Positions 22,832-54,019 of a stretch of 64,000 bases of DNA are shown one piece after another. Position numbers and translations under genes: made by a program. Below the pieces are notes generated by a model. The model was not told the origin of the DNA. It saw only the letters and a list, made by a program, of their open reading frames with translations, and made no database searches. This stretch comes from an uncultured Mycoplasmatota bacterium (lineage in GTDB: Bacteria; Bacillota_I; Bacilli_A; RF39; UBA660): assembly GCA_900549285.1 (NCBI GenBank), contig URNW01000005.1:794-64793 (forward strand), in the 5' to 3' direction. The first letter of the stretch is position 1. Every line of letters begins with the position of its first letter.

Positions 22832-23563
22832 TTAAATAAATTTACATTTAGTTTCTTTTGCCCATTTTCCTATTAATTCAATATTTGATTTCATTTTTAA
22901 GAAATTATCATAAAACATCCACTCATGCATAAAAATATAAATTTTATGTTCATCAATTTTTTTTATTTCTTTTAAAACATCTTGACAATTATCTAACCTA
23001 ATATGAACATTGATATATTTCATTTTATCTTTTAAATATACGCCTTTTTGTTTTATTAATCTTTTTTCATGTTTTTTTAAATTGTAACAGTCAATATCTA
23101 TTTTTTCACTAGCAAATAATTTATTGATCTTTTGGCTTCTTAAAAATAATAATTGTTCATAAGTAATATTATAATTATGTAATCTTGTCAATTTAGTCAA
23201 ATTTAAACCACAAATTCTATTTATTTGAAATTTAAAATCACAAAACAAATTTTTAAACTCTGATAAATTAAGATTTGTTAAATTAGTATTTCCGTTTTTG
23301 CCATGAAAATTAATTTTTAGCCATCTTCTATTTTTTTTAAACTCCTTTTTATATTTATCTGTACAAAAATTCAAATTAAAAGATGCGTTCATATTTTCAC
23401 AAAAACAATAGAGGTGAAATACCATATTATATTTGTCATGTAATTCCTTTAGTAAACCCATTGTCTTATTTGCAAAAATACTATCATAATAATTACGATT
23501 GGCATTTAAATCTTCAAATATATTAATTGTATCATCTATTGAGATGTGAGCTTTTTTAATCAT
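22832..23563 (-). CDS. hypothetical protein (possible divergent carbohydrate esterase; very tentative)
   Basis: 243-aa ORF inside the glycan operon. The N-terminal HISIDDT is reminiscent of a NodB-type motif. There is no firm assignment. Confidence 0.35.
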   Translation of the reverse strand: MIKKAHISIDDTINIFEDLNANRNYYDSIFANKTMGLLKELHDKYNMVFHLYCFCENMNASFNLNFCTDKYKKEFKKNRRWLKINFHGKNGNTNLTNLNLSEFKNLFCDFKFQINRICGLNLTKLTRLHNYNITYEQLLFLRSQKINKLFASEKIDIDCYNLKKHEKRLIKQKGVYLKDKMKYINVHIRLDNCQDVLKEIKKIDEHKIYIFMHEWMFYDNFLKMKSNIELIGKWAKETKCKFI

Positions 23564-42376: not shown

Positions 42377-43753
42377 TTATACAATTTTTATATTCTTCCA
42401 AGGATCTTTTCTTTTTAATCTTTTTATAGCTTTTTCTATTGTTATTTCATCTGGTTTTACTTTATCTAATTCATTCCATGCTATGGGCATAGATACTGTT
42501 AATTTTTTTCTGATTCTAAGAGAATATGGAGCTACACTTGTTGCACCTTTTGTATTTCTTACCCAATCAATAAATATCTTTTCTTTGCGTTTTTCTTTTT
42601 TCATATTGCTTGTATATTTATCTGGCCATTTTGCTTCCATTAATTTGGCAATATCTCTAGCAATTTTTCTGGCATTTTTCCAAGTTACCTTCGTACTTAA
42701 TGGTACTATGATGTGATATCCTTTTCCACCACTTGTTTTTAAGTAGGATGCTAATTTATATTCATCTAATATATTTTTTAAATCCTTTACCCCTTTCCTT
42801 AATTTTTCTAAACTTAGTTTTTCATCTGGATCTAAATCAAAGACTAACATATCAGCATGATTTATATCATTTGCTTTGCTTCCCCATACATGAAATTCAT
42901 AGCTGTTCATCTGAACTTCCGATATTAAACCATTGATGTCTTTTATGTAATAGTAATCATTTTGTTTATCATTTTTATTTTTTATTTTCTTTTTTTCTAG
43001 GAAATTATAGATATTTTCAAAATGCTTTTTGTAAAATTTTGATCCACTTGATCCATTAGGATACCTTATAGTACTAATAAGTCTATTTTCTATAAATGGT
43101 AACATATGTTTCGCTACTTCTTTATAATAATTTATGATATCTATTTTGGTTACTTTGGGATTTTTATATATTATCTTATCAGGATTTGTGATTTCTATAT
43201 GCTTGATATTATCTTTAATTTCATCCATGGTTCTATTTGTTTTAATACTTGTATTAAATTCATTTATATCATCATATAAATGATAATTATCTTTATCTTT
43301 TATAAGTAACCAACTTTTATCATCATTTTTTAATTTAACTAAGGTCCACATTCCTTTTAATCTTGAACCTTTTAAATCAAATTTTATGGGTCCTTCTTTG
43401 AAGTTTGGTTTATATCCCTTTATAGCTTCCCAATAACCTTTATCCCATAACATGACAGTTCCACCGCCATATTCACCTTTTGGTATTGTTCCTTCAAAAT
43501 TACGATAATCTATGGGATGATCTTCAACCATGATAGCAAGTCTTTTATCTTTATCGTTATAAGATGGACCTTTGGGTACTGCCCAACTTTTTAAAACACC
43601 ATTCCATTCTAAACGTAAATCATAGTGATCTTTTCTGGCAATATGATGTTGAATGCAAAATCTTAATTTTTTGGCTCTCTTGCCTGATTTACCAATTGGT
43701 TCTTTGGTTTTATTAAAATTTCTTTTTTTGTTATATTTACTTAAACTTGACAT
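42377..43753 (-). CDS. LigD-type 3'-phosphoesterase + primase-polymerase (AEP) two-domain protein, no ligase domain
   Basis: N-terminal QHHIARKDHYDLRLEWNGVLKSWAVPKGPS...VEDHPIDY...GGGTVMLWD is the PE domain. C-terminal ITNPDKIIYKN...YYKEVAKHMLPFIENRL...YKKH is the LigD Pol domain. Confidence 0.8.
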   Translation of the reverse strand: MSSLSKYNKKRNFNKTKEPIGKSGKRAKKLRFCIQHHIARKDHYDLRLEWNGVLKSWAVPKGPSYNDKDKRLAIMVEDHPIDYRNFEGTIPKGEYGGGTVMLWDKGYWEAIKGYKPNFKEGPIKFDLKGSRLKGMWTLVKLKNDDKSWLLIKDKDNYHLYDDINEFNTSIKTNRTMDEIKDNIKHIEITNPDKIIYKNPKVTKIDIINYYKEVAKHMLPFIENRLISTIRYPNGSSGSKFYKKHFENIYNFLEKKKIKNKNDKQNDYYYIKDINGLISEVQMNSYEFHVWGSKANDINHADMLVFDLDPDEKLSLEKLRKGVKDLKNILDEYKLASYLKTSGGKGYHIIVPLSTKVTWKNARKIARDIAKLMEAKWPDKYTSNMKKEKRKEKIFIDWVRNTKGATSVAPYSLRIRKKLTVSMPIAWNELDKVKPDEITIEKAIKRLKRKDPWKNIKIV

Positions 43754-43810: not shown

Positions 43811-44102
43811 ATTTAGATTACAATATGTTTAATTATAGACTGGCGGATATTTCGACTGACGATTTAAACGAAATTAATTTAGATTACAATATGTTTAATT
43901 ATAGACATTAAAACTTTACGGGAAACAAAATTTTTATAGAAATTTAGATTACAATATGTTTAATTATAGACAAATAATTATGAAATAAAAGGGTTTAGTA
44001 CTCTTAAATTTAGATTACAATATGTTTAATTATAGACCTGTCTTTGTTTTGTGGGTTCCTTGCATCATAGTAATTTAGATTACAATATGTTTAATTATAG
44101 AC
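43811..44102 (-). CRISPR. CRISPR array 1: 5 identical 30-nt repeats, 4 spacers (35-36 nt)
   Basis: The plus-strand repeat atttagattacaatatgtttaattatagac starts at 43811, 43877, 43942, 44008 and 44073. The transcribed orientation is inferred as minus (GTCTATAATTAAACATATTGTAATCTAAAT). This rests on the AT-rich leader on the cas2 side and the typical I-B ...CTAAAT 3' end. Confidence 0.95.
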
Positions 44103-44228
44103 CCGCGTTTTTATTCATAATTTCATTTTTATCATAACATAATTTATATTTTTTCTCTATAAATTTTTAATTTTTTATAATTAATTTCTGTCGATGCTCT
44201 ACATTTTTCTCCGTATTATAGGTCGACA
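44103..44228 (-). promoter_or_regulatory. leader of array 1 with a conserved 40-nt palindromic TATAAT-containing motif (44189-44228)
   Basis: Homologous to the leaders at 48624-48750 and 52779-52902. In the minus-strand reading the motif is tgtcgacctataatacggagaaaaatgtagagcatcgaca. Confidence 0.7.
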
Positions 44229-44230
44229 GA

Positions 44231-44509
44231 TTAAATAAATTGCTCATTATCTTCTATAATTTGTGTTATAAATTCCTTTATCATCCATCTTTTATTACGA
44301 GATTTGAATACAATACAGGAATCGATACTTTTTCTCAAATATCCTTTTAATTCTATTTTCATTTTTTCTAATTGCGATTCTAATAATTCTCCTTCAAATA
44401 CTGAATTTTGAACATGATATAAATATCTTTTGCAAATTTGATAAATTTTTCTTTGTACTTTAGCAAAATCATCCACTTGTTTAATATCATAAATTAATAT
44501 TATATACAT
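44231..44509 (-). CDS. cas2: CRISPR-associated endoribonuclease Cas2
   Basis: MYIILIYDI... is a typical Cas2 N-terminal beta strand. The ATG at 44509 follows the cas1 stop directly; the ORF-track start 44548 would overlap cas1. Confidence 0.85.
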   Translation of the reverse strand: MYIILIYDIKQVDDFAKVQRKIYQICKRYLYHVQNSVFEGELLESQLEKMKIELKGYLRKSIDSCIVFKSRNKRWMIKEFITQIIEDNEQFI

Positions 44510-44510
44510 A

Positions 44511-45506
44511 TTACCACCATATTTTAAATCCTTCATATTTTTTATCATCCATTAAATGTTTTATTAACTTATATAGCTCTAATTTTATTAGTCTTTCATA
44601 AGTTACTTCTCTTTTTAGGTTTTTATGCATAATGGTTCTTTTTAAAGTATTTTCCAGTTCTTGAATCACCTTTTTTAAACTTGCATCTTTCATTTTTAAA
44701 TAGTAATCTTCTTTAACAAAATCTTCTTTTGTAATTATATTTTTATTTAAAAGTGAAAAAATGGTACGATCGACAATTAGCGGCTTAAATACTTCAGTTA
44801 TATCTAAAGTTAGAGAAAATCGTTTGGTTCCAGGTTCATGTAAATAACTTATTGTAGGATTTAACTCTGTTTGATAAATAATACTTAACGTTTTTGTATA
44901 AAGTACAGAATTTAATAATGAAATTAATACATTTACCATTGTATCTGGAGGATTTTTTATTCTTTTTTCAAAATCAATTTCTTGATTAATCATTATTTTC
45001 CACGAAGCATAATAAGTCTTTCTTATATTCCCCTCTATCCCCATTAATTCTAAAATAGTATTACAATCTTTAATTTTCATTCTTAATTTTTCTATTTCTT
45101 CTATATAAATATCTAAATTTTTTCCTCTATTTTGATAATATTTTAAGTTTCTTAAAATGTTAAAACTAGCCGCTACAATAAATTCTTTGGCTATTTCTAA
45201 TCTTTTTGTAGAATCAATATAATATTTTACTTGATTTACTAGTAAACTTCCAGATATCTTTTGCTCTTTAGGATAAAATGAGCCAATATAGTAATTATAA
45301 TAATTAAACATGTGAACATTAATCCCATAAGATCCTAAAAATTCAAATAATCTTTTATTGTATGTTATCTCGCCAAATACATAAATATCCCTTATTCTTT
45401 CTATTGGAATATCTTTTTTTAAAACTTTATCAGAATACAATGTTAAAGAATTATTATTTTTTCTTAGTTCTCCTGAACTAAATATATAATAAGATTGCTT
45501 ACTCAT
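44511..45506 (-). CDS. cas1: CRISPR-associated endonuclease Cas1
   Basis: 331 aa at the cas4-cas1-cas2 position, with a conserved GIEGN...YLHEPG-type core (MGIEGNIRKTYY, SYLHEPGTKRFSLTLD). Confidence 0.9.
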   Translation of the reverse strand: MSKQSYYIFSSGELRKNNNSLTLYSDKVLKKDIPIERIRDIYVFGEITYNKRLFEFLGSYGINVHMFNYYNYYIGSFYPKEQKISGSLLVNQVKYYIDSTKRLEIAKEFIVAASFNILRNLKYYQNRGKNLDIYIEEIEKLRMKIKDCNTILELMGIEGNIRKTYYASWKIMINQEIDFEKRIKNPPDTMVNVLISLLNSVLYTKTLSIIYQTELNPTISYLHEPGTKRFSLTLDITEVFKPLIVDRTIFSLLNKNIITKEDFVKEDYYLKMKDASLKKVIQELENTLKRTIMHKNLKREVTYERLIKLELYKLIKHLMDDKKYEGFKIWW

Positions 45507-46006
45507 ATTTCACATAATTCATAGTATGCACATTTTTTACATATACTGCTATTTAGGCAATCTGGTGCTTTTTTACTTTCTATGATCTTTCTAATTATTT
45601 TTAATTGATTCTCTATAAATAAAATATCTTCCTTTGTTAAATATATTTCTTGTTCGTATTTTTCTTTTGGTATTTTTAAAATACCAATAGGATTTTCGAT
45701 TCCGTTTTTCCATAAATGATATAAATAATATTTAATTTGATATTCACTGGCATCTTTTAAACTTTTGCTTTTTTTAATTTCATAAATGATTCCGTTTTTC
45801 ATAAAATCTATATTTATCGAATCATTTATTAAAACATGTTTTCTTTCTTTGTTATATGTATTTTCATCAATTAATTTTCCTAAACTTACATATTCACTCG
45901 TATCTTCCATCGTTATTCCTTTTGAATAATACCATAGTTTTCTTGGACAGATTAGGCTATAAGCAAACATTAAGCCAGTAATTTTTTTAGATAAATCCTG
46001 ATTCAT
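45503..46006 (-). CDS. cas4: CRISPR-associated exonuclease Cas4
   Basis: 167 aa with an N-terminal Cys (LICPRKLWY) and a C-terminal CKKCAYYELC cluster. YEIK is a RecB-like motif. Confidence 0.85.
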   Translation of the reverse strand: MNQDLSKKITGLMFAYSLICPRKLWYYSKGITMEDTSEYVSLGKLIDENTYNKERKHVLINDSINIDFMKNGIIYEIKKSKSLKDASEYQIKYYLYHLWKNGIENPIGILKIPKEKYEQEIYLTKEDILFIENQLKIIRKIIESKKAPDCLNSSICKKCAYYELCEI

Positions 46007-48119
46007 TTTCTTCTCCTATTTCAAATCCATATTTAGAACTATAATTTCCATAAACGCGATAAATATCAGATGCACCATTTATTAATGAATATATTTTTGT
46101 AGGATTATAATATATTGTAGTTGTATATTCTAACAATTTTTGTTTGCTCTGATATCTTTTTTCAAAACTAATTAACTTATCATTTGATTCATTAATTAAT
46201 CTTTCTATTTCATCATGATTTTCTACGTATATACTATCTGGTATGATAGTTATTGTGTTAATATCTCTAAATAATTTTTGTAATTCACTCTGATTATATT
46301 TTAAAGGATATACTTTTTCTAAATGATGGATTGCTTTATTTAGTTCTTCTATATAATTTGTATCATTTCTCTTTAGTTCTTCTTTGTTATAGACACTATT
46401 TATATATTCTAATTTTTCTTCTTCACTTATTAGCTTTTTGTTGTATTTCTCTAATTTTTCTAAGGATAAGTTTACAAGATTTTTGTCATAAATTCTTTTT
46501 CGTTCAGTATTGTAAACAAAAACATTAGGTTTATCTGGAATTATCAATCCTTTTCTGTTACAACGCCCTAGCCGTTGCATTAGACTATCAGCTGGTGATA
46601 TTTCAGTGTGTAGTATATCAAAACTAATGTCTAGACTTGCTTCTACTATTTGAGTTGTAATCCATATCCCATTTTTATTAAAATTTTTTATTTCAGTTTC
46701 TAATTTTTCTCTATCCTTTTTAATAAATCTTGCATGTAACAAGTGCAATTCTTCCACTTTATTTTCTAAAATTTTATATATCTCTATTGCTTTTTTTACT
46801 GTATTACATATTATTAACACTTTGCTAGATTCACTATCTTTTATTATCTTATCATAATTAAAATCACCGTCTACTATTTCTATAAAATGTCGTGTTTTAT
46901 TACTTACAGATATTTTTTTAATATAATTATTTTCGCCAATATACTCTTTTATTTTATCTTCTAAGAATGTTGGTAAAGTAGCGGTTGTAATAGCAAAATG
47001 TCCACCATACTCGTTAACTGTTTTTAAACCAATTATAATACAAGCTAGAATTACAGGCGAATACATTTGGATTTCATCCACAATTACTTTGCTATAGGAT
47101 AGAGTAGCAACGAATTGTTCTTCTCCTAGAGCTTTAAAAGGAAACTTAAATATTTGGTCTACTGTACATATAGTTAGTGGATAACTAAGTCGTTTCATTT
47201 CACAATATTCGCTATAAGTTAAATCAGAATTATTTTTTAACATTTCTCCGAAACTATCAGAATGGAGTAGGGCTATATCATTATTTTTACCATAATTTTT
47301 GCATCTTTTATAAATGTCATTACTTGCTACTTTTAATGGTAACGTATAGAAGCCTTTTGAATTGTTTAGCCAAAGTAAGGATGCTTCTGTTTTTCCTATA
47401 CCTGTACTTGCTACAATAATAATATTTTTATTTTTGTTTTCTTTAGCAAAAGTTTGAATATCATTTAATGTAAAATCCTGTTCAATGTTTTGAGCTATCA
47501 ATTTGTTTTTATTTTTTAATTCTGCTATGGTCGTTCCACTACTGGCAGCATAATCAAAGCGATTTAGCATTCCTTTTACCTTACTATATTTTTCCCAATC
47601 TTCTTCTGGCAAATCTGTTCCTCGCTTATCAAATAATAAATCCTTCAGTTTAAATCGTTTAATATTCGGATTAATATTAGGAATTACTGGTTTTACATAT
47701 TTTTCAAATATTTCTCTATATTTAGTACCATCTATATCTGTTATTCTTTTATGATGATAGAATATTGCTGTGGCAATGATTTGATATTCATTTAACCCAT
47801 ACTTATCTATTAAATATTCTTTTGGCAAAAACTTAGGGCTTAACATACCATGATTTATATTATCATTTTGATTTATTCCCTTTATTTCATTTTGAAATAA
47901 AATACTAGATTTTCCAAAATCATGGTAATAGCATGATATTAAGATCATCTCCTGAAATTCTTTGCTAAAAGCTTGAGGATATTCTTTTATAAAATTAAAG
48001 AATACTTTTAAGACTTCTTCTGTATGTTCTTCTAATGTTTTTTTGGGATGAGTTTTTGCTAAATAATTTTTAAGAGTAATTTCCGTTTTATTTTTTAGTT
48101 CTTGTAATAATTCATTCAT
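45987..48119 (-). CDS. cas3: CRISPR-associated helicase/nuclease Cas3 (HD + SF2 helicase)
   Basis: N-terminal HD domain (HTEEV..., YYHDFGK), Walker A ASTGIGKTEA and a VDEIQ box; 710 aa. Confidence 0.9.
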   Translation of the reverse strand: MNELLQELKNKTEITLKNYLAKTHPKKTLEEHTEEVLKVFFNFIKEYPQAFSKEFQEMILISCYYHDFGKSSILFQNEIKGINQNDNINHGMLSPKFLPKEYLIDKYGLNEYQIIATAIFYHHKRITDIDGTKYREIFEKYVKPVIPNINPNIKRFKLKDLLFDKRGTDLPEEDWEKYSKVKGMLNRFDYAASSGTTIAELKNKNKLIAQNIEQDFTLNDIQTFAKENKNKNIIIVASTGIGKTEASLLWLNNSKGFYTLPLKVASNDIYKRCKNYGKNNDIALLHSDSFGEMLKNNSDLTYSEYCEMKRLSYPLTICTVDQIFKFPFKALGEEQFVATLSYSKVIVDEIQMYSPVILACIIIGLKTVNEYGGHFAITTATLPTFLEDKIKEYIGENNYIKKISVSNKTRHFIEIVDGDFNYDKIIKDSESSKVLIICNTVKKAIEIYKILENKVEELHLLHARFIKKDREKLETEIKNFNKNGIWITTQIVEASLDISFDILHTEISPADSLMQRLGRCNRKGLIIPDKPNVFVYNTERKRIYDKNLVNLSLEKLEKYNKKLISEEEKLEYINSVYNKEELKRNDTNYIEELNKAIHHLEKVYPLKYNQSELQKLFRDINTITIIPDSIYVENHDEIERLINESNDKLISFEKRYQSKQKLLEYTTTIYYNPTKIYSLINGASDIYRVYGNYSSKYGFEIGEENESGFI

Positions 48120-48135
48120 TTTAACCTCCTTTTGT

Positions 48136-48623
48136 ATTTTAATGGATTATTCATAATTATAAACTGGTTCATGAACAGTAGAGCCACTATCGCTACTATA
48201 ATTTAGATTGCACTATGCATCATTATAGACGATTCTACTGGTCAAGGAATAATTATTTCTGATGGATTTAGATTGCACTATGCATCATTATAGACATTAT
48301 ATTAAAAAGAGTTGTGTTATCAAGTTAGCAAATTTAGATTGCACTATGCATCATTATAGACTGCTTAAAAAACGTTGCTTAAAGTCCCGTAAATATTATT
48401 TAGATTGCACTATGCATCATTATAGACGTATCAAGAATTAGACGCTATCGAAGTCGAAAACGAATTTAGATTGCACTATGCATCATTATAGACTTAAAAA
48501 TTAAGGATAGTGTAGATTTAAAAGAATTATTTAGATTGCACTATGCATCATTATAGACCCAACGACACTATATACAAAGATTATTTAGATTTAATTTAGA
48601 TTGCACTATGCATCATTATAGAC
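48136..48623 (-). CRISPR. CRISPR array 2: 7 identical 30-nt repeats plus 1 degenerate terminal repeat, 7 spacers (35-36 nt), embedded between cas5 and cas3
   Basis: The plus-strand repeat atttagattgcactatgcatcattatagac starts at 48201, 48266, 48332, 48398, 48464, 48529 and 48594. A degenerate repeat attttaatggattattcataattataaac lies at 48136-48164, exactly one 36-nt spacer away. Confidence 0.95.
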
Positions 48624-48750
48624 TCGTAGTTTTACTAATAAGATTGGTTTTATTTTATCATAAAGTATCTAAAATTTCTATAAATATATATAATTTTGTA
48701 ATATTTTTTCTGTCGATCTCCCAAGTTTTTAACGCTATTATAGTTCGACA
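48624..48750 (-). promoter_or_regulatory. leader of array 2 with the conserved 40-nt motif (48711-48750)
   Basis: In the minus-strand reading the motif is tgtcgaactataatagcgttaaaaacttgggagatcgaca. It lies 87 nt from the first repeat, against 86 nt in leader 1. Confidence 0.7.
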
Positions 48751-48757
48751 GAAATTT

Positions 48758-50295
<1,538 letters not shown>

Positions 50296-50318
<23 letters not shown>

Positions 50319-51846
50319 TTCTAAATCCTATAACAAAGGCATAGCCTATAAGCTTTAATTTTTTATTATCTATTAAAATTTCATATAATTCTTCTGGGAT
50401 CTTTTCTCCTGTTATGTTAGACAAGTTAGCTATAAGGTCAAATAAATCATCTGCTTTTTCCATCTTAATCATATCTAACATCTGAAATACTAATTCTTTT
50501 ATCTTATTTTCATTGTCTAATCCTTTCCGATATTTTTTTCCTATTTCTATAACATCTTCATATTGCATTTTTACTCCTCCTTCTATTTTTAGTAAAGCAT
50601 AGCAACTACTACTTGCATATTTAGTCTCATCTTCTAAGCTTAATAGCATTAATTCATTTATTAAGGGATATAAGCTATAGTTATTTAATATTCTTCTCAT
50701 TGTTTCATTATAAACATTTAAATATTCTTGTTTTGATTTAATAGCAGATTTTTTAGATAAATACTCTAATCTTTTAAAGTTATGTTTAATTTTCAGCAAG
50801 ATGTTTCTAGATATAATATTAAAATCATAGCCTTCTTCTTTTCCTAAATTGGTAATTACTTCAATATTACTTAATTTTTCTAAATTTTTTTCAGCAATTT
50901 TATTAATCATTTCATTGAATTTTTGATAAGAACGTAAATCTTCATTAGAGAAAATATCATCATTTGTGTTTATCAAAGTATTTACTGAATCATTTTGATT
51001 GATAAAAATAAATGAATTATTATAAGATGAAAAGCCAAGTGGTATTAAAGAAAACAAGAAATTACATTTAGGACATATATAGCAGTTTGGCTTAAAATTC
51101 CAATAATTAGAATTTTTTCTAGCAAAATCTTCTGTTAAAGTACGTACATAGGAAGATTTAATTTTACTATTTCCACTAATTCTACTTCCACATTCGGCAC
51201 AAAATTCATTTCCTTTTGTTTCTTTGCTTAAATAATCTTTTAAGGGTTCTTCGAAATATTTTCTAAATTCTTCTTTGGGGGCTTTTTTGCTGTTAGATGT
51301 ATTTAAAAAACTCACATCTTCCCAAAAGTTATTAACGACAAAATATGATACATCTTTAATTAAAAATATTTCTTTTAAATCGTTATTTGCTAAATCATTT
51401 AGTATGATTTTTATATTATCTTTGTAATTATCAATAGTTGACTTTTTTAAATTTTGTAAATCATTATTCCAGTCAAAGGATAACTTATTTTTTACTATTT
51501 CATAACCCGATTTATAACGATTCGAGTTTAAGGCTGTTTCTATTGCTTTTAGTTCTTCTTTTAATTCCTTTTGCTCTAAATCTTTTTCTAGTAATGATTC
51601 TAATTTTATTATTGTTTTTGTTAAAGGACAATTATTTTTATATTTATTAATCAGAGCATTAAAATAAAGTTCAGCAAAATCAGTATTAAGCATGTATTCC
51701 TTGTCTATTTTTAAAGTTGATTCTTTTATCTCACATACTCTTTTATCATCATTATTTTCTATCATTGTAAATAACCCAACGATTCCTGCATTAATACAAA
51801 AATCTTGAGTATTAAATTCTACTTGTTCCATGTTACTCCTTTCCAT
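50296..51846 (-). CDS. cas8b: type I-B large subunit Cas8b (Cst1-like)
   Basis: 516 aa between cas6 and cas7, with a CAECGSR...CYICPKC zinc ribbon. The probable start is at 51831. Confidence 0.7.
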
Positions 51847-52561
51847 TTAAAATTCTAAAATAGCCAAAGCCACTTGATCGCATTGAACCTAGGCCAATTT
51901 TATTTAGTAAACTAATTAACTCAGGCGTTCCCTTTAGTTTGAATATTCCTAAAGATGCTCTAACGCTTCCATTGTATATTTTGATAATTGTAGATTTAGT
52001 GCTTAAAGGAACTATTTTAAAATCATATAATTCTAAATTATAACCTAGTCTTTCTAAATTTCCTTTTATATTTAATTTAAGCATTGATTCGAAATTCTTA
52101 TCATCAGGTGTAAAATATGTATCTTTATTTGTACTTTGATTGTGATATCTTACTACCAACGGTGAATCAAATTTTATTATTACTTCGTCATTATAGTAAT
52201 TTCTTATTATACTTGTTCTAATTTGAATTAAATGCATTGAATTGCTTTTTAAATTAAATTCTATGTTATCTTTTTTTCTTAGAAGTAAAGCATTATAAAA
52301 TTCTATTGTCTCTTTTGTAATATCGCTTTTTATGTGGACTGTCAATATAGAACTTTCAAGCATAATTTTATCTTCCTCAAATGTTGGATTTTTTAAATAT
52401 GTGGTAAAGCAAAAAGGCTTTAATGTTGTTTTAGTGTACCATAAATCATATAATTCTTTGCTGTATTTGGTTAAAGTCTCTTTGAAAAATGAAACAATAC
52501 TTTTTCGGTAGTCTTTAGGTAGTATAAAATTATCAAGCTTAAATGTTAGATCAATTTGCAT
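51833..52561 (-). CDS. cas6: CRISPR repeat endoribonuclease Cas6
   Basis: 242 aa with a C-terminal glycine-rich loop GLGSMRSSGFGYF. It is the first gene of the operon, with GGAGG 6 nt upstream of the ATG. Confidence 0.85.
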   Translation of the reverse strand: MQIDLTFKLDNFILPKDYRKSIVSFFKETLTKYSKELYDLWYTKTTLKPFCFTTYLKNPTFEEDKIMLESSILTVHIKSDITKETIEFYNALLLRKKDNIEFNLKSNSMHLIQIRTSIIRNYYNDEVIIKFDSPLVVRYHNQSTNKDTYFTPDDKNFESMLKLNIKGNLERLGYNLELYDFKIVPLSTKSTIIKIYNGSVRASLGIFKLKGTPELISLLNKIGLGSMRSSGFGYFRILNGKE

Positions 52562-52588
52562 TTTCTTCCTCCTTTCATTTATACTTTG

Positions 52589-52617
52589 ATACTAACACAA
52601 TTTATTTGGCATGTCAA
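52589..52617 (-). promoter_or_regulatory. cas operon promoter (Pcas6)
   Basis: On the minus strand: TTGACA (52617-52612), a 17-nt spacer, then TGtTAGTAT (hexamer 52594-52589). It lies about 28 nt upstream of the cas6 ATG. Confidence 0.7.
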
Positions 52618-52654
52618 TAATAATTTTAAATAAACATGGTTTGTTTTTTTGAAA

Positions 52655-52683
52655 TTGACTTTATTTTTAAACTATGATAAAAT
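52655..52683 (+). promoter_or_regulatory. divergent plus-strand promoter reading into the degenerate repeat cluster
   Basis: TTGACT (52655-52660), a 17-nt spacer, then TGaTAAAAT (hexamer 52678-52683). Confidence 0.6.
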
Positions 52684-52687
52684 TTGT

Positions 52688-52778
52688 GTGCGAATTAATT
52701 ATACATTTTGTAATTTAAAGTGTTTTTTTAAAATTATTTTAATTAATTAGCTTATAATTAAACATAATGTAAATATTT
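52688..52778 (+). CRISPR. degenerate mini-CRISPR I (pseudo-repeat, 29-nt pseudo-spacer, pseudo-repeat)
   Basis: psiR0 is at 52688-52720; its tail cattttgtaatttaaag compares with the canonical catattgtaatctaaat. psiS1 is at 52721-52749. psiRA is at 52750-52778; gcttataattaaacataatgta compares with the canonical gtctataattaaacatattgta. The start-to-start spacing of 62-64 nt is close to the array period of 65-66 nt. Confidence 0.6.
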
Positions 52779-52902
52779 TGTCGACTTATAATATAGTCTA
52801 AAGCCTAAAAGATCGACAAAAAACTTACGAAAATATATTAATTTATAGAAATTTCAAGTAATTTTTGATGAGATTAAAGTATTTTTATTAACAAAAGTAC
52901 GA
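52779..52902 (+). promoter_or_regulatory. third CRISPR leader copy (motif 52779-52818), inverted relative to leaders 1 and 2
   Basis: The plus-strand motif is tgtcgacttataatatagtctaaagcctaaaagatcgaca, followed by an 84-nt leader. The leader shares atttatagaaa and the junction ...aaaagtacga with leaders 1 and 2. Confidence 0.65.
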
Positions 52903-52996
52903 GTTTATAATTGAATAGATTGTCATTTAATACACTTTTAATTGATTTTCCTTAATTCAATTTATTGTTCATAATTAAACTTTTGTATAATTTGAC
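52903..52996 (+). CRISPR. degenerate mini-CRISPR II (two pseudo-repeats flanking a ~34-nt pseudo-spacer)
   Basis: psiRB at 52903-52932 (gtttataattgaatagattgtcatttaata) matches the array 1 repeat read on the minus strand at 22/30. psiRC at 52967-52996 (gttcataattaaacttttgtataatttgac) is more diverged. The start-to-start spacing is 64 nt. Confidence 0.55.
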
Positions 52997-53341
52997 AGTT
53001 TTGTTATTTTTGCGATATATTGTTATAAGAAAAAAGACAGCTTATTTAAAATGACGTTAGACTTTTCTAGTTTGCCATTTAAAGTCGTCTTTTTCATGCT
53101 ATTTGATAGTATAACTTTTTATATAGAAAATCAAACCAAATCAATGGTTCGACTTTTCAATACATATAATTAATGGGGCAATAAACTAATGAGTTTTGCA
53201 CCCAAGTTAGTAATACTTGATGAATTAATTATAGCATCATTTAATAAATTTTACAAAGTCTTTTACATAAAGCAAATTAAAATTAAGTTAATTTATTTTA
53301 AAATATTAATATTTTTGCTATAATATAATTAAATAGTAAAG

Positions 53342-54019
53342 GTGATGGATGTGTTTAGGAGCGAATTAGAATTACAAAATAAATTTATTAATTTAATGAA
53401 ACAAGATAAACAAGATCATACTTATATTTCAGATGAATTTAATGCAAGATTTGGTAATGTTGATATTGTTAAAGTAAAATATGATAATAATACACCTTTA
53501 ACAAAAAAACAGGCTGATATACTTTCTAATATAGCTGCTGCAAGAATCGTTGGGTATTTGCATAAAAAATCAATGAGAACTTTATCTTATTTAATAAAAA
53601 ACTCTGGTTATACCGAAGAATATATATTATCCATTTTGTCAAAATTAAAATCAGCAAATATTATTAATGAACCAAAATACTATAGATATATAATTAATGA
53701 ACAATTTGAGTTTCCTAAATTAGTTTTTAGTTCTTATGAAGCAAAATTAACTGATTGGCAGAAAGCAATTTCTCAAGCAATAAAAAATCAAGCATTTTCA
53801 AGTGAGTCATACGTTGTAATGCCTGAAAAAATTGCTAAAAAATTATCGTTAACTAAGAAAAATTATTTTTTGTCATATAATGTTGGTTTAATCGCTGTTA
53901 ATAATGATAAATACAAAATTCTTGTGAAACCTAAAATTCAAAAAAATAATTATTCTCAGGCTTCATTAATTAGCAGTATTGCAAAATATTTAATATTACA
54001 AAAGCAAGTCGTTGCGTGA
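53342..54019 (+). CDS. hypothetical protein, possibly a wHTH inserted in a PD-(D/E)xK-like fold (tentative)
   Basis: 225-aa ORF with an extended -10 TGcTATAAT at 53316-53324 and aaaggtga before the GTG/ATG start. The candidate nuclease residues (GNVDIV ... YEAKLTDWQKA) are only a guess. Confidence 0.4.
   Translation: MMDVFRSELELQNKFINLMKQDKQDHTYISDEFNARFGNVDIVKVKYDNNTPLTKKQADILSNIAAARIVGYLHKKSMRTLSYLIKNSGYTEEYILSILSKLKSANIINEPKYYRYIINEQFEFPKLVFSSYEAKLTDWQKAISQAIKNQAFSSESYVVMPEKIAKKLSLTKKNYFLSYNVGLIAVNNDKYKILVKPKIQKNNYSQASLISSIAKYLILQKQVVA

Follow-up and report, generated by a model that had tools for sequence, protein, structure and literature searches.

Organization of the region upstream of cas6

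The 64-kb stretch of contig URNW01000005.1 analysed here (further called the window) carries on its minus strand a complete type I-B CRISPR-Cas system (short palindromic repeats, clustered and regularly interspaced, and associated genes), recognized from open reading frames (ORFs) and Pfam matches, with the cas operon and the arrays intact. Between the promoter of cas6, which heads the operon, and a third array in decay we observed a divergently oriented, degenerate mini-array in which two pseudo-repeats surround one spacer-like segment, psiS1, with partial similarity to a site at the cas6 promoter. We consider it likely, from the sequence evidence given below, that this element is a CreR-type (Cas-regulating RNA) mini-CRISPR of the type I-B system. 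The features concerned are as follows.

52589..52617, minus strand: predicted cas6 operon promoter, TTGACA (52617-52612), 17 nt, TG-extended TAGTAT (52594-52589); found by promoter scan, core kept in related loci
52617..52636, minus strand: protospacer-like target site, TGTTTATTTAAAATTATTAT; from the psiS1 match and co-variation
52637..52639, minus strand: CCA, candidate protospacer-adjacent motif (PAM), directly 5′ of the target on the protospacer strand
52655..52683, plus strand: predicted mini-array promoter, TTGACT, 17 nt, TG-extended TAAAAT; found by promoter scan, divergent from the cas6 promoter
52691..52720, plus strand: psiR0, first pseudo-repeat; from repeat matching and alignment with real repeats
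52721..52749, plus strand: psiS1, 29-nt spacer-like guide segment, TGTTTTTTTAAAATTATTTTAATTAATTA
52750..52779, plus strand: psiRA, second pseudo-repeat
52713..52771, plus strand: predicted mature CreR-like RNA of ∼59 nt (8-nt 5′ handle, 29-nt guide, 22-nt 3′ handle), from the Cas6 cleavage rule
48758..52561, minus strand: type I-B Cascade genes, the proposed regulated set (ORFs and Pfam matches)
51833-52561, minus strand: cas6
50296-51846, minus strand: cas8b
49434-50318, minus strand: cas7
48758-49456, minus strand: cas5

The system has two canonical arrays, array A with seven identical repeats (GTCTATAATGATGCATAGTGCAATCTAAAT) and array B with five repeats (GTCTATAATTAAACATATTGTAATCTAAAT). 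Scored without gaps against the array-B repeat, the three best off-array stretches of the window all fall at 52691-52932 on the plus strand, with 8-9 mismatches against a background of at least 10; both psiR0 and psiRA, oriented like the real repeats, are among these three. What the two pseudo-repeats retain is reciprocal. In psiR0 the 3′ part is intact, with the mini-stem and the 8-nt 5′ handle ATTTAAAG (52713-52720), and the 5′ part is degenerate: the last 8 nt agree with the repeats at 6-8 of 8 positions, the first 12 nt at 6 of 12, and the handle is identical (8/8) to the ATTTAAAG handle of a functional repeat in the related locus L003. In psiRA the first 22 nt, corresponding to the 3′-handle part (52750-52771), match at 19-21 of 22 positions, and the last 8 nt are degenerate (1-2 of 8). 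The same signature has been described for CreA and CreR RNAs, where PsiR1 keeps the 5′-handle nucleotides and PsiR2 the 3′-handle part (Liu et al., bioRxiv 10.1101/2023.03.10.532045). The arrangement of two repeat-like units around one spacer-like segment, beside the cas locus, is also that of a CreR gene. Features of a canonical array were not found: its repeats have 9 mismatches to the consensus, its spacer is 29 nt long (canonical spacers of the window measure 35-36 nt, and the 140 spacers of the clade range over 34-39 nt with most at 35-36), and a leader lies downstream of it rather than upstream. Relative to 35-36 nt, psiS1 falls short by roughly the 6 nt of a single Cas7 step, and this hints at a Cascade with a shortened backbone.

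The ends of the RNA were predicted from where Cas6 of type I-B systems cleaves as a rule, 8 nt upstream of the spacer, as applied to psiR0 and psiRA. Only 7 nt separate the −10 box of the mini-array promoter from psiR0. The −10 region of this promoter, TATGATAAAAT (52673-52683), recurs in the leader of array A (48640-48650) and, with one extra A, in the leader of array B (44125-44135); the shared motif suggests that the unit was derived from a leader-proximal repeat-spacer unit.

A prior sequence-only reading of this region had given coordinates for the mini-array and its target, and these as well as the sequences hold on re-reading. The divergent TTGACT-17-TAAAAT promoter that it proposed (52655-52683) was found again by promoter scan.

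Guide-target match at the cas6 promoter

The cas6 promoter TTGACA-17-TAGTAT is the sole good promoter-like site that the scan detected ahead of cas6. Positions 1-20 of psiS1 agree with the minus strand read from 52636 to 52617 at 18 of 20 positions, with mismatches at positions 6 and 19; positions 21-29 are unmatched. At its 3′ end the target shares one base, the initial T, with the −35 box, position 20 and the next five bases reading TTGACA, and CCA flanks the other end, in confirmation of the match as it was originally reported. The guide is thus complementary in part, starting with the seed at its 5′ end, to a stretch by the promoter that serves the effector cas genes, as is characteristic of CreR RNAs.

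Over both strands of the window (128 kb) this was the only non-self match of psiS1 with three or fewer mismatches. A match of at least 18/20, anchored at the 5′ end of the spacer, was obtained in the 126-bp region upstream of cas6 with 0.05% of dinucleotide-shuffled spacers and with 0.115% of shuffled regions, outside the chance expectation, and inverted repeats of at least 18/20 with a gap of 20-250 nt occurred at just three loci of the 64-kb window. The anchored, CCA-flanked match is beyond chance.

A second match of psiS1, at 52642-52657 (plus strand, 14/16), covers part of the −35 box of the mini-array promoter; it is not conserved in the related loci L057 and L066, and we dismissed it as background of A/T-rich sequence. 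The cas6 and mini-array promoters make up an imperfect palindrome centred on CATG (52635-52638). Elsewhere in the window the psiS1 seed has a perfect 12-nt match at 23070-23081 (plus strand), flanked 5′ by TCA, within an ORF at 22832-23563; by a rough estimate from base composition this match is near chance.

The trinucleotide CCA is the same in all four intact haplotypes of the locus described below, with the adjoining bases differing among them. Both CCA and CCT are functional type I-B PAMs in Clostridioides difficile by experiment, with YCN as the motif for interference and CCN for adaptation (PMC8406132).

Co-variation of guide and target

By exact look-up of members of the Cas6 cluster, which led to many metagenomic contigs, we collected related loci. 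Four haplotypes are intact with the full architecture and carry three spacer variants; the three that are sisters of the window haplotype were each seen in more than one independent sample, and the intergenic region of L012 is identical to that of the window.

Window haplotype (loci window, L012): guide 1-20 TGTTTTTTTAAAATTATTTT; target TGTTTATTTAAAATTATTAT; 18/20, mismatches at 6, 19
L057 haplotype (loci L057-L065): guide 1-20 TGATTGTTTAGAATTATTTT; target TGATTATTTAGAATTATAAT; 17/20, mismatches at 6, 18, 19
L066 haplotype (loci L066-68): guide 1-20 TGATTTCTTAAAATTATTTT; target TGATTACTTAAAATTATTAT; 18/20, mismatches at 6, 19
L070 haplotype (loci L070-79): guide 1-20 TGATTTCTTAAAATTATTTT; target TGATTACTTAAAATTAATAT; 17/20, mismatches at 6, 17, 19

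The spacer begins with TGTTTTTTTAAAA in the window, TGATTGTTTAGAA in L057 and TGATTTCTTAAAA in L066 and L070, and the target correspondingly with TGTTTATTTAAAA, TGATTATTTAGAA and TGATTACTTAAAA. Co-variation of the pseudo-spacer with the cas6 promoter was thus observed at three positions where both sides have changed: 3 (T/T to A/A), 7 (T/T to C/C) and 11 (A/A to G/G). Differences without compensation are confined to the PAM-distal positions 17-19. At position 6 the guide base is T, G or T against a constant target base and is never identical to it, with a G·T wobble as the L057 case. When all haplotypes were compared, every guide had its own target as the best match. An alignment of five rows in the proposed register has 88.9% of paired cells and three double-change pairs, in comparison with 38-57% and 0-1 pairs in slid registers; with the five target substitutions placed at random, at least 70 of 80 matched cells were reached at P = 3e-4.

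In type I Cascade complexes every sixth base of the spacer is flipped out and unpaired. Compensated changes near the seed, a sixth position free to vary and an unchanging trinucleotide at the flank are together what recognition by type I Cascade predicts. Tolerance to a mismatch at position 6 has been shown for type I-F1 mini-arrays, not for I-B (Shmakov et al., PMC10120712).

Co-variation alone would fit any pairing of the two arms, and one could consider that the 20-bp inverted repeat (52617-52636 and 52721-52740), whose arms lie 84 nt apart and flank two promoters, is selected independently of Cascade as an RNA hairpin, a DNA cruciform or a pair of protein-binding sites. We regard this as very improbable. 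Neither predicted transcript would contain both arms, since transcription from the plus-strand promoter starts only downstream of the left arm and that from the cas6 promoter runs away from both, and folding of the whole region is no better than that of shuffled sequences (z = −0.25 to −0.5). The RNA of the unit, too, folds no better than shuffled sequences, as one would expect of the weakly structured repeats of type I-B systems. From protein half-sites one would expect conservation, not co-variation. The mismatch at position 6, the invariant CCA, the start of the match exactly at the repeat/spacer junction and the conservation of the handles would all be left unexplained by such a stem.

The differential rate of evolution points in the same direction. 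Variable columns among the four haplotypes make up 7% of psiR0, 14% of psiS1 and 13% of psiRA, in comparison with 30% of the adjacent leader, 33% of the pseudo-repeat that follows it (psiRB) and 42% of the next spacer (S2); third codon positions of cas6 diverge by ∼17% among the same haplotypes. The variable columns of psiS1 are mostly the compensated sites, and those of psiRA are found in the 3′ tail and where the ACA/TGT stem loops. The mini-array promoter, sigma-70-like by prediction, is retained in L057, L066 and L070 as TTGACT-17-TAAAAT or TAGAAT. Both the element and the guide-target relation are conserved over related loci.

A third leader with a vestigial array

The sequence-only reading, right in its statements on the sequence, had overlooked a third leader and a vestigial array at 52780-52996, directly 3′ of psiRA.

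52780..52902, plus strand: third CRISPR leader (leader 3), 80% mean column identity to leaders A and B
52903-52932, plus strand: psiRB, vestigial array
52933-52966, plus strand: S2, vestigial array
52967-52996, plus strand: psiRC, vestigial array

Leader 3 holds both TGTCGAC...ATCGACA boxes. In L003, L004 and L017, loci with 60-71% Cas6 identity to the window, leader 3 precedes a live array divergent from cas6; past this divergent array 3, at 1487-1760 in L003 and 9206-9480 in L004, we saw a tRNA-like sequence (tRNA-His by eye) and a hairpin. In the window S2 has no target at four or fewer mismatches in 20 nt, and we treated it as a fossil spacer; the vestigial array changes rapidly, 33-42% of the columns of psiRB and S2 being variable.

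This neighbourhood raises the question of whether psiR0-psiS1-psiRA is itself an inert fossil, a decayed array remnant upstream of leader 3 whose similarity to the cas6 promoter is an A/T-rich coincidence. Its neighbours, leader 3 and psiRB-S2-psiRC, are plainly vestigial; L004 has a lone pseudo-repeat with no target at the same place, between leader 3 and the cas6 promoter; the unit is decayed in L015, where cas6 is truncated, and partly lost in L080; and ∼1.65 matches with three or fewer mismatches are expected by chance per window. Still, the relevant search space is the 126 bp upstream of cas6, where the anchored match has P ≤ 0.001, and a fossil would hardly show three compensated substitutions with position 6 exempt, an invariant CCA, repeat conservation that is reciprocal and handle-specific, or a conservation 2-4 times higher than that of the truly vestigial neighbour. 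We therefore consider an inert fossil improbable.

Within psiRC there is a promoter-like site, TTGACA-18-TATATT (52992-53021, plus strand), kept in all related haplotypes, and after it an element of ∼70 nt with an A-run, a hairpin and a T-run (to 53094 in the window; L057 9455-9535, reverse complement). In L057 this hairpin is predicted to be strong (−27 kcal/mol, z = −4.1), but its counterpart in the window is a weak one (−12 kcal/mol, z = −0.6). This element could be a terminator of plus-strand transcripts or a small RNA.

These observations bear on another possibility, an addiction module of the CreTA type, where the mini-array would encode a CreA antitoxin that serves mainly to silence a small toxin gene and regulates cas genes only incidentally. 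The position of the target between two divergent promoters, like in Haloarcula hispanica, would be in line with it, and so would the conserved promoter-like site in psiRC with the following ∼70-nt hairpin-flanked stretch. Yet the divergent promoter beside the target drives, by prediction, the mini-array itself, and the 7 nt between its −10 box and psiR0 leave no room for a toxin gene. Small ORFs in the region have no ribosome-binding site and none is conserved; psiS1 has no match at one or fewer mismatches in 12 nt near 52960-53030; S2, as said, has no target in the window; Rfam gave no match at E ≤ 1 over 52300-53500; and lineages that have neither target nor PAM survive. An adjacent creT with a CreA-targeted promoter was not found, though a very small RNA toxin could still be accommodated. 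Altogether we see very little likelihood that the element is an addiction module.

Host and remaining parts of the system

The window is chromosomal, with 26% G+C and with uvrB, glmS, cysS and pflB on board. Its UvrB shares 94% identity with the protein of ‘Mycoplasma sp. CAG:776’ and 90% with that of Candidatus Caccenecus avistercoris, a member of an uncultured gut Bacillota lineage. The remaining parts of the type I-B system are located downstream of cas5.

43811..48750, minus strand: remainder of the system, with array A, cas3, cas4, cas1, cas2 and array B, each array with a leader
48201-48750, minus strand: leader and array A, 7 repeats (repeats at 48201-48623)
48135-48164, minus strand: degenerate terminal repeat of array A
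43811-44230, minus strand: leader and array B, 5 repeats (repeats at 43811-44102)

Array A with its own leader sits within the cas operon, in the interval between cas5 and cas3 (48135-48750, minus strand), and only about a dozen bases separate the end of its terminal repeat from the start codon of cas3. Directly after array B there is a LigD gene (phosphoesterase and primase-polymerase; 42377-43753, minus strand); synteny of array B with LigD is retained in L004, L058 and L060, across loci with 62-89% Cas6 identity.

Relatives, losses and points against a CreR-type element

Relatives of this Cas6 are few. The best ones in species-representative genomes have 34-36% identity, a scan of JGI metagenome proteins returned relatives with 34% identity at most, and a pattern search in metagenome DNA for the conserved 5′ untranslated region gave 0 matches.

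Losses were observed as well. In L001 and L080-82, which come from four samples, a 3-nt gap deletes CCA, the first bases of the target have further changes, the −35 box TTGACA has become TCGACA and leader 3 is missing; in L080-82 psiS1 and psiRA are also lost, with cas6 to cas5 intact. The circuit is clade-specific, and its two halves tend to disappear together. The change to TCGACA may be a compensation for the lost repressor by a weaker promoter, an idea that is suggestive only.

Several facts weigh against the reading of the element as a CreR gene. The guide of 29 nt is shorter than the normal spacers of 35-37 nt, and both psiS1 and its target are A/T-rich and of low complexity. A PAM could not be derived for the system: none of the 140 unique clade spacers had a protospacer in phages, plasmids, IMG/VR or local DNA. 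In this search the 11 spacers of the window and then all 140 were compared with GenBank phages, a subset of 57 with the plasmids of PLSDB, and all 140 with all fetched DNA, and spacer cores, searched for exactly in six scans of IMG/VR, had 0 matches; among the supplementary tables of a PAM-repeat atlas no repeat resembled the array repeats. The number of intact haplotypes is just four (five alignment rows), and co-variation amounts to three events. The relatives with 62-75% Cas6 identity (L002, L003, L004) were examined and contained no convincing CreR-like unit. Finally, since L001 and L080-82 have lost CCA and the first two bases of the target with intact cas genes, the circuit is dispensable.

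With these points taken into account, the anchored match, the co-variation, the handle pattern, the slower evolution and the conserved promoter support the CreR-like reading that had been proposed from the sequence of the window.

Proposed mechanism of autorepression

If the element works as a CreR gene, its transcription, processing and binding, the recognition of CCA as a PAM and the resulting repression would proceed as follows. The promoter at 52655-52683 would transcribe psiR0-psiS1-psiRA from the plus strand. Cas6 would cleave both pseudo-repeats, yielding a crRNA-like (CRISPR RNA-like) molecule of ∼59 nt (52713-52771) with 5′ handle AUUUAAAG, the 29-nt guide and a 22-nt 3′ handle, and this RNA would be loaded into Cascade (Cas8b-Cas7-Cas5-Cas6). 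Cascade would recognise CCA (52639-52637, minus strand), and guide positions 1-18 (except 6) and 20 would pair with the plus strand at 52636-52617. Sitting there, at the upstream border of the cas6 promoter and over its −35 box, Cascade would block RNA polymerase. As pairing stops at about position 20 of 29, a full R-loop would not form and Cas3 would not be recruited or licensed to cut the chromosome; we infer repression with no cleavage from this partial complementarity. The outcome would be negative feedback on cas6-cas8b-cas7-cas5, and the feedback should relax when canonical crRNAs compete for the Cas proteins or when an anti-CRISPR inactivates Cascade. Arrays A and B are the source of such competing crRNAs.

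A variant of this scheme, which we put forward as tentative and rather unlikely, is a dual self-limiting switch. Cascade loaded with the CreR RNA and bound between the back-to-back promoters would repress the cas6 operon as well as its own guide transcript (only 15 bp separate CCA from the −35 box of the mini-array promoter), and the 29-nt guide would build a shortened Cascade unable to license Cas3. If such a switch exists, the loss of CCA together with the −35 down-mutation in L001 and L080-82 would be evidence that unrepressed Cas expression is costly and had to be compensated. The mini-array transcript may also extend into leader 3.

Comparison with known systems

In type I-B, I-E and V-A systems, CreR RNAs were established by experiment (Liu et al., bioRxiv 10.1101/2023.03.10.532045). 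Like them, the present element is a degenerate two-repeat unit with reciprocal handle retention and no recognisable toxin, with partial complementarity from the 5′ end of the guide to a site in an effector cas promoter flanked by a PAM-like motif, and with predicted autorepression. It differs in the target, here the promoter of cas6, with which the operon begins, instead of Pcas8 as in H. hispanica or PcasA as in Salmonella; in the host, an uncultured low-GC gut Bacillota; in its position upstream of a third, vestigial leader and array; and in being known from sequence alone.

Mini-arrays were reported in ∼19% of bacterial type I-B loci, typically near cas6, and targets in the cas6 promoter were predicted for mini-arrays of Clostridium perfringens and Fusobacterium (Shmakov et al., bioRxiv 10.1101/2023.03.03.530964 / PMC10120712). 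The element of the window shares with these the subtype, the position upstream of cas6, the short spacer and a predicted target between mini-array and cas6 with a type I-B PAM flank (here the candidate CCA). No sequence relationship to them was established, the Cas6 of the window being at most 36% identical to those of the genome collection searched. A phage-borne copy or mimic of the mini-array was sought and none was found, unlike in the C. perfringens case; unlike in the published predictions, the guide-target pair is supported here by natural compensatory changes.

The CreTA module of the H. hispanica type I-B system offers another parallel, since the CreA target is situated there between two divergent promoters and Cascade-CreA represses cas genes with no cleavage; in contrast to CreTA, no toxin gene was found here and the divergent promoter would drive the guide RNA itself. 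The C. difficile I-B system (PMC8406132) is likewise from a low-GC member of Bacillota and, as in the window, has repeats ending in AAT; we use it as a precedent for the PAM only.

Judged by all sequence-testable criteria of the CreR/regulatory mini-array class, the element appears to be a member of it. Type I-B mini-arrays targeting the cas6 promoter are already published; the element is an additional case and not a new principle. Autorepression of Cas through degenerate guides that resemble crRNAs has recently been recognised as a layer of regulation responding to crRNA load and to attack by anti-CRISPRs, and this locus would be a clean natural example of it in an uncultured gut Bacillota lineage of very low GC content. 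It adds a kind of evidence mostly missing from the published cases, namely the co-evolution, inside a single clade, of guide and promoter at three seed-proximal positions with position 6 drifting freely, a pattern that bears the in vivo mark of the type I rule by which each sixth base stays unpaired. The locus also illustrates how a regulator may arise beside a decaying array and then be lost again.

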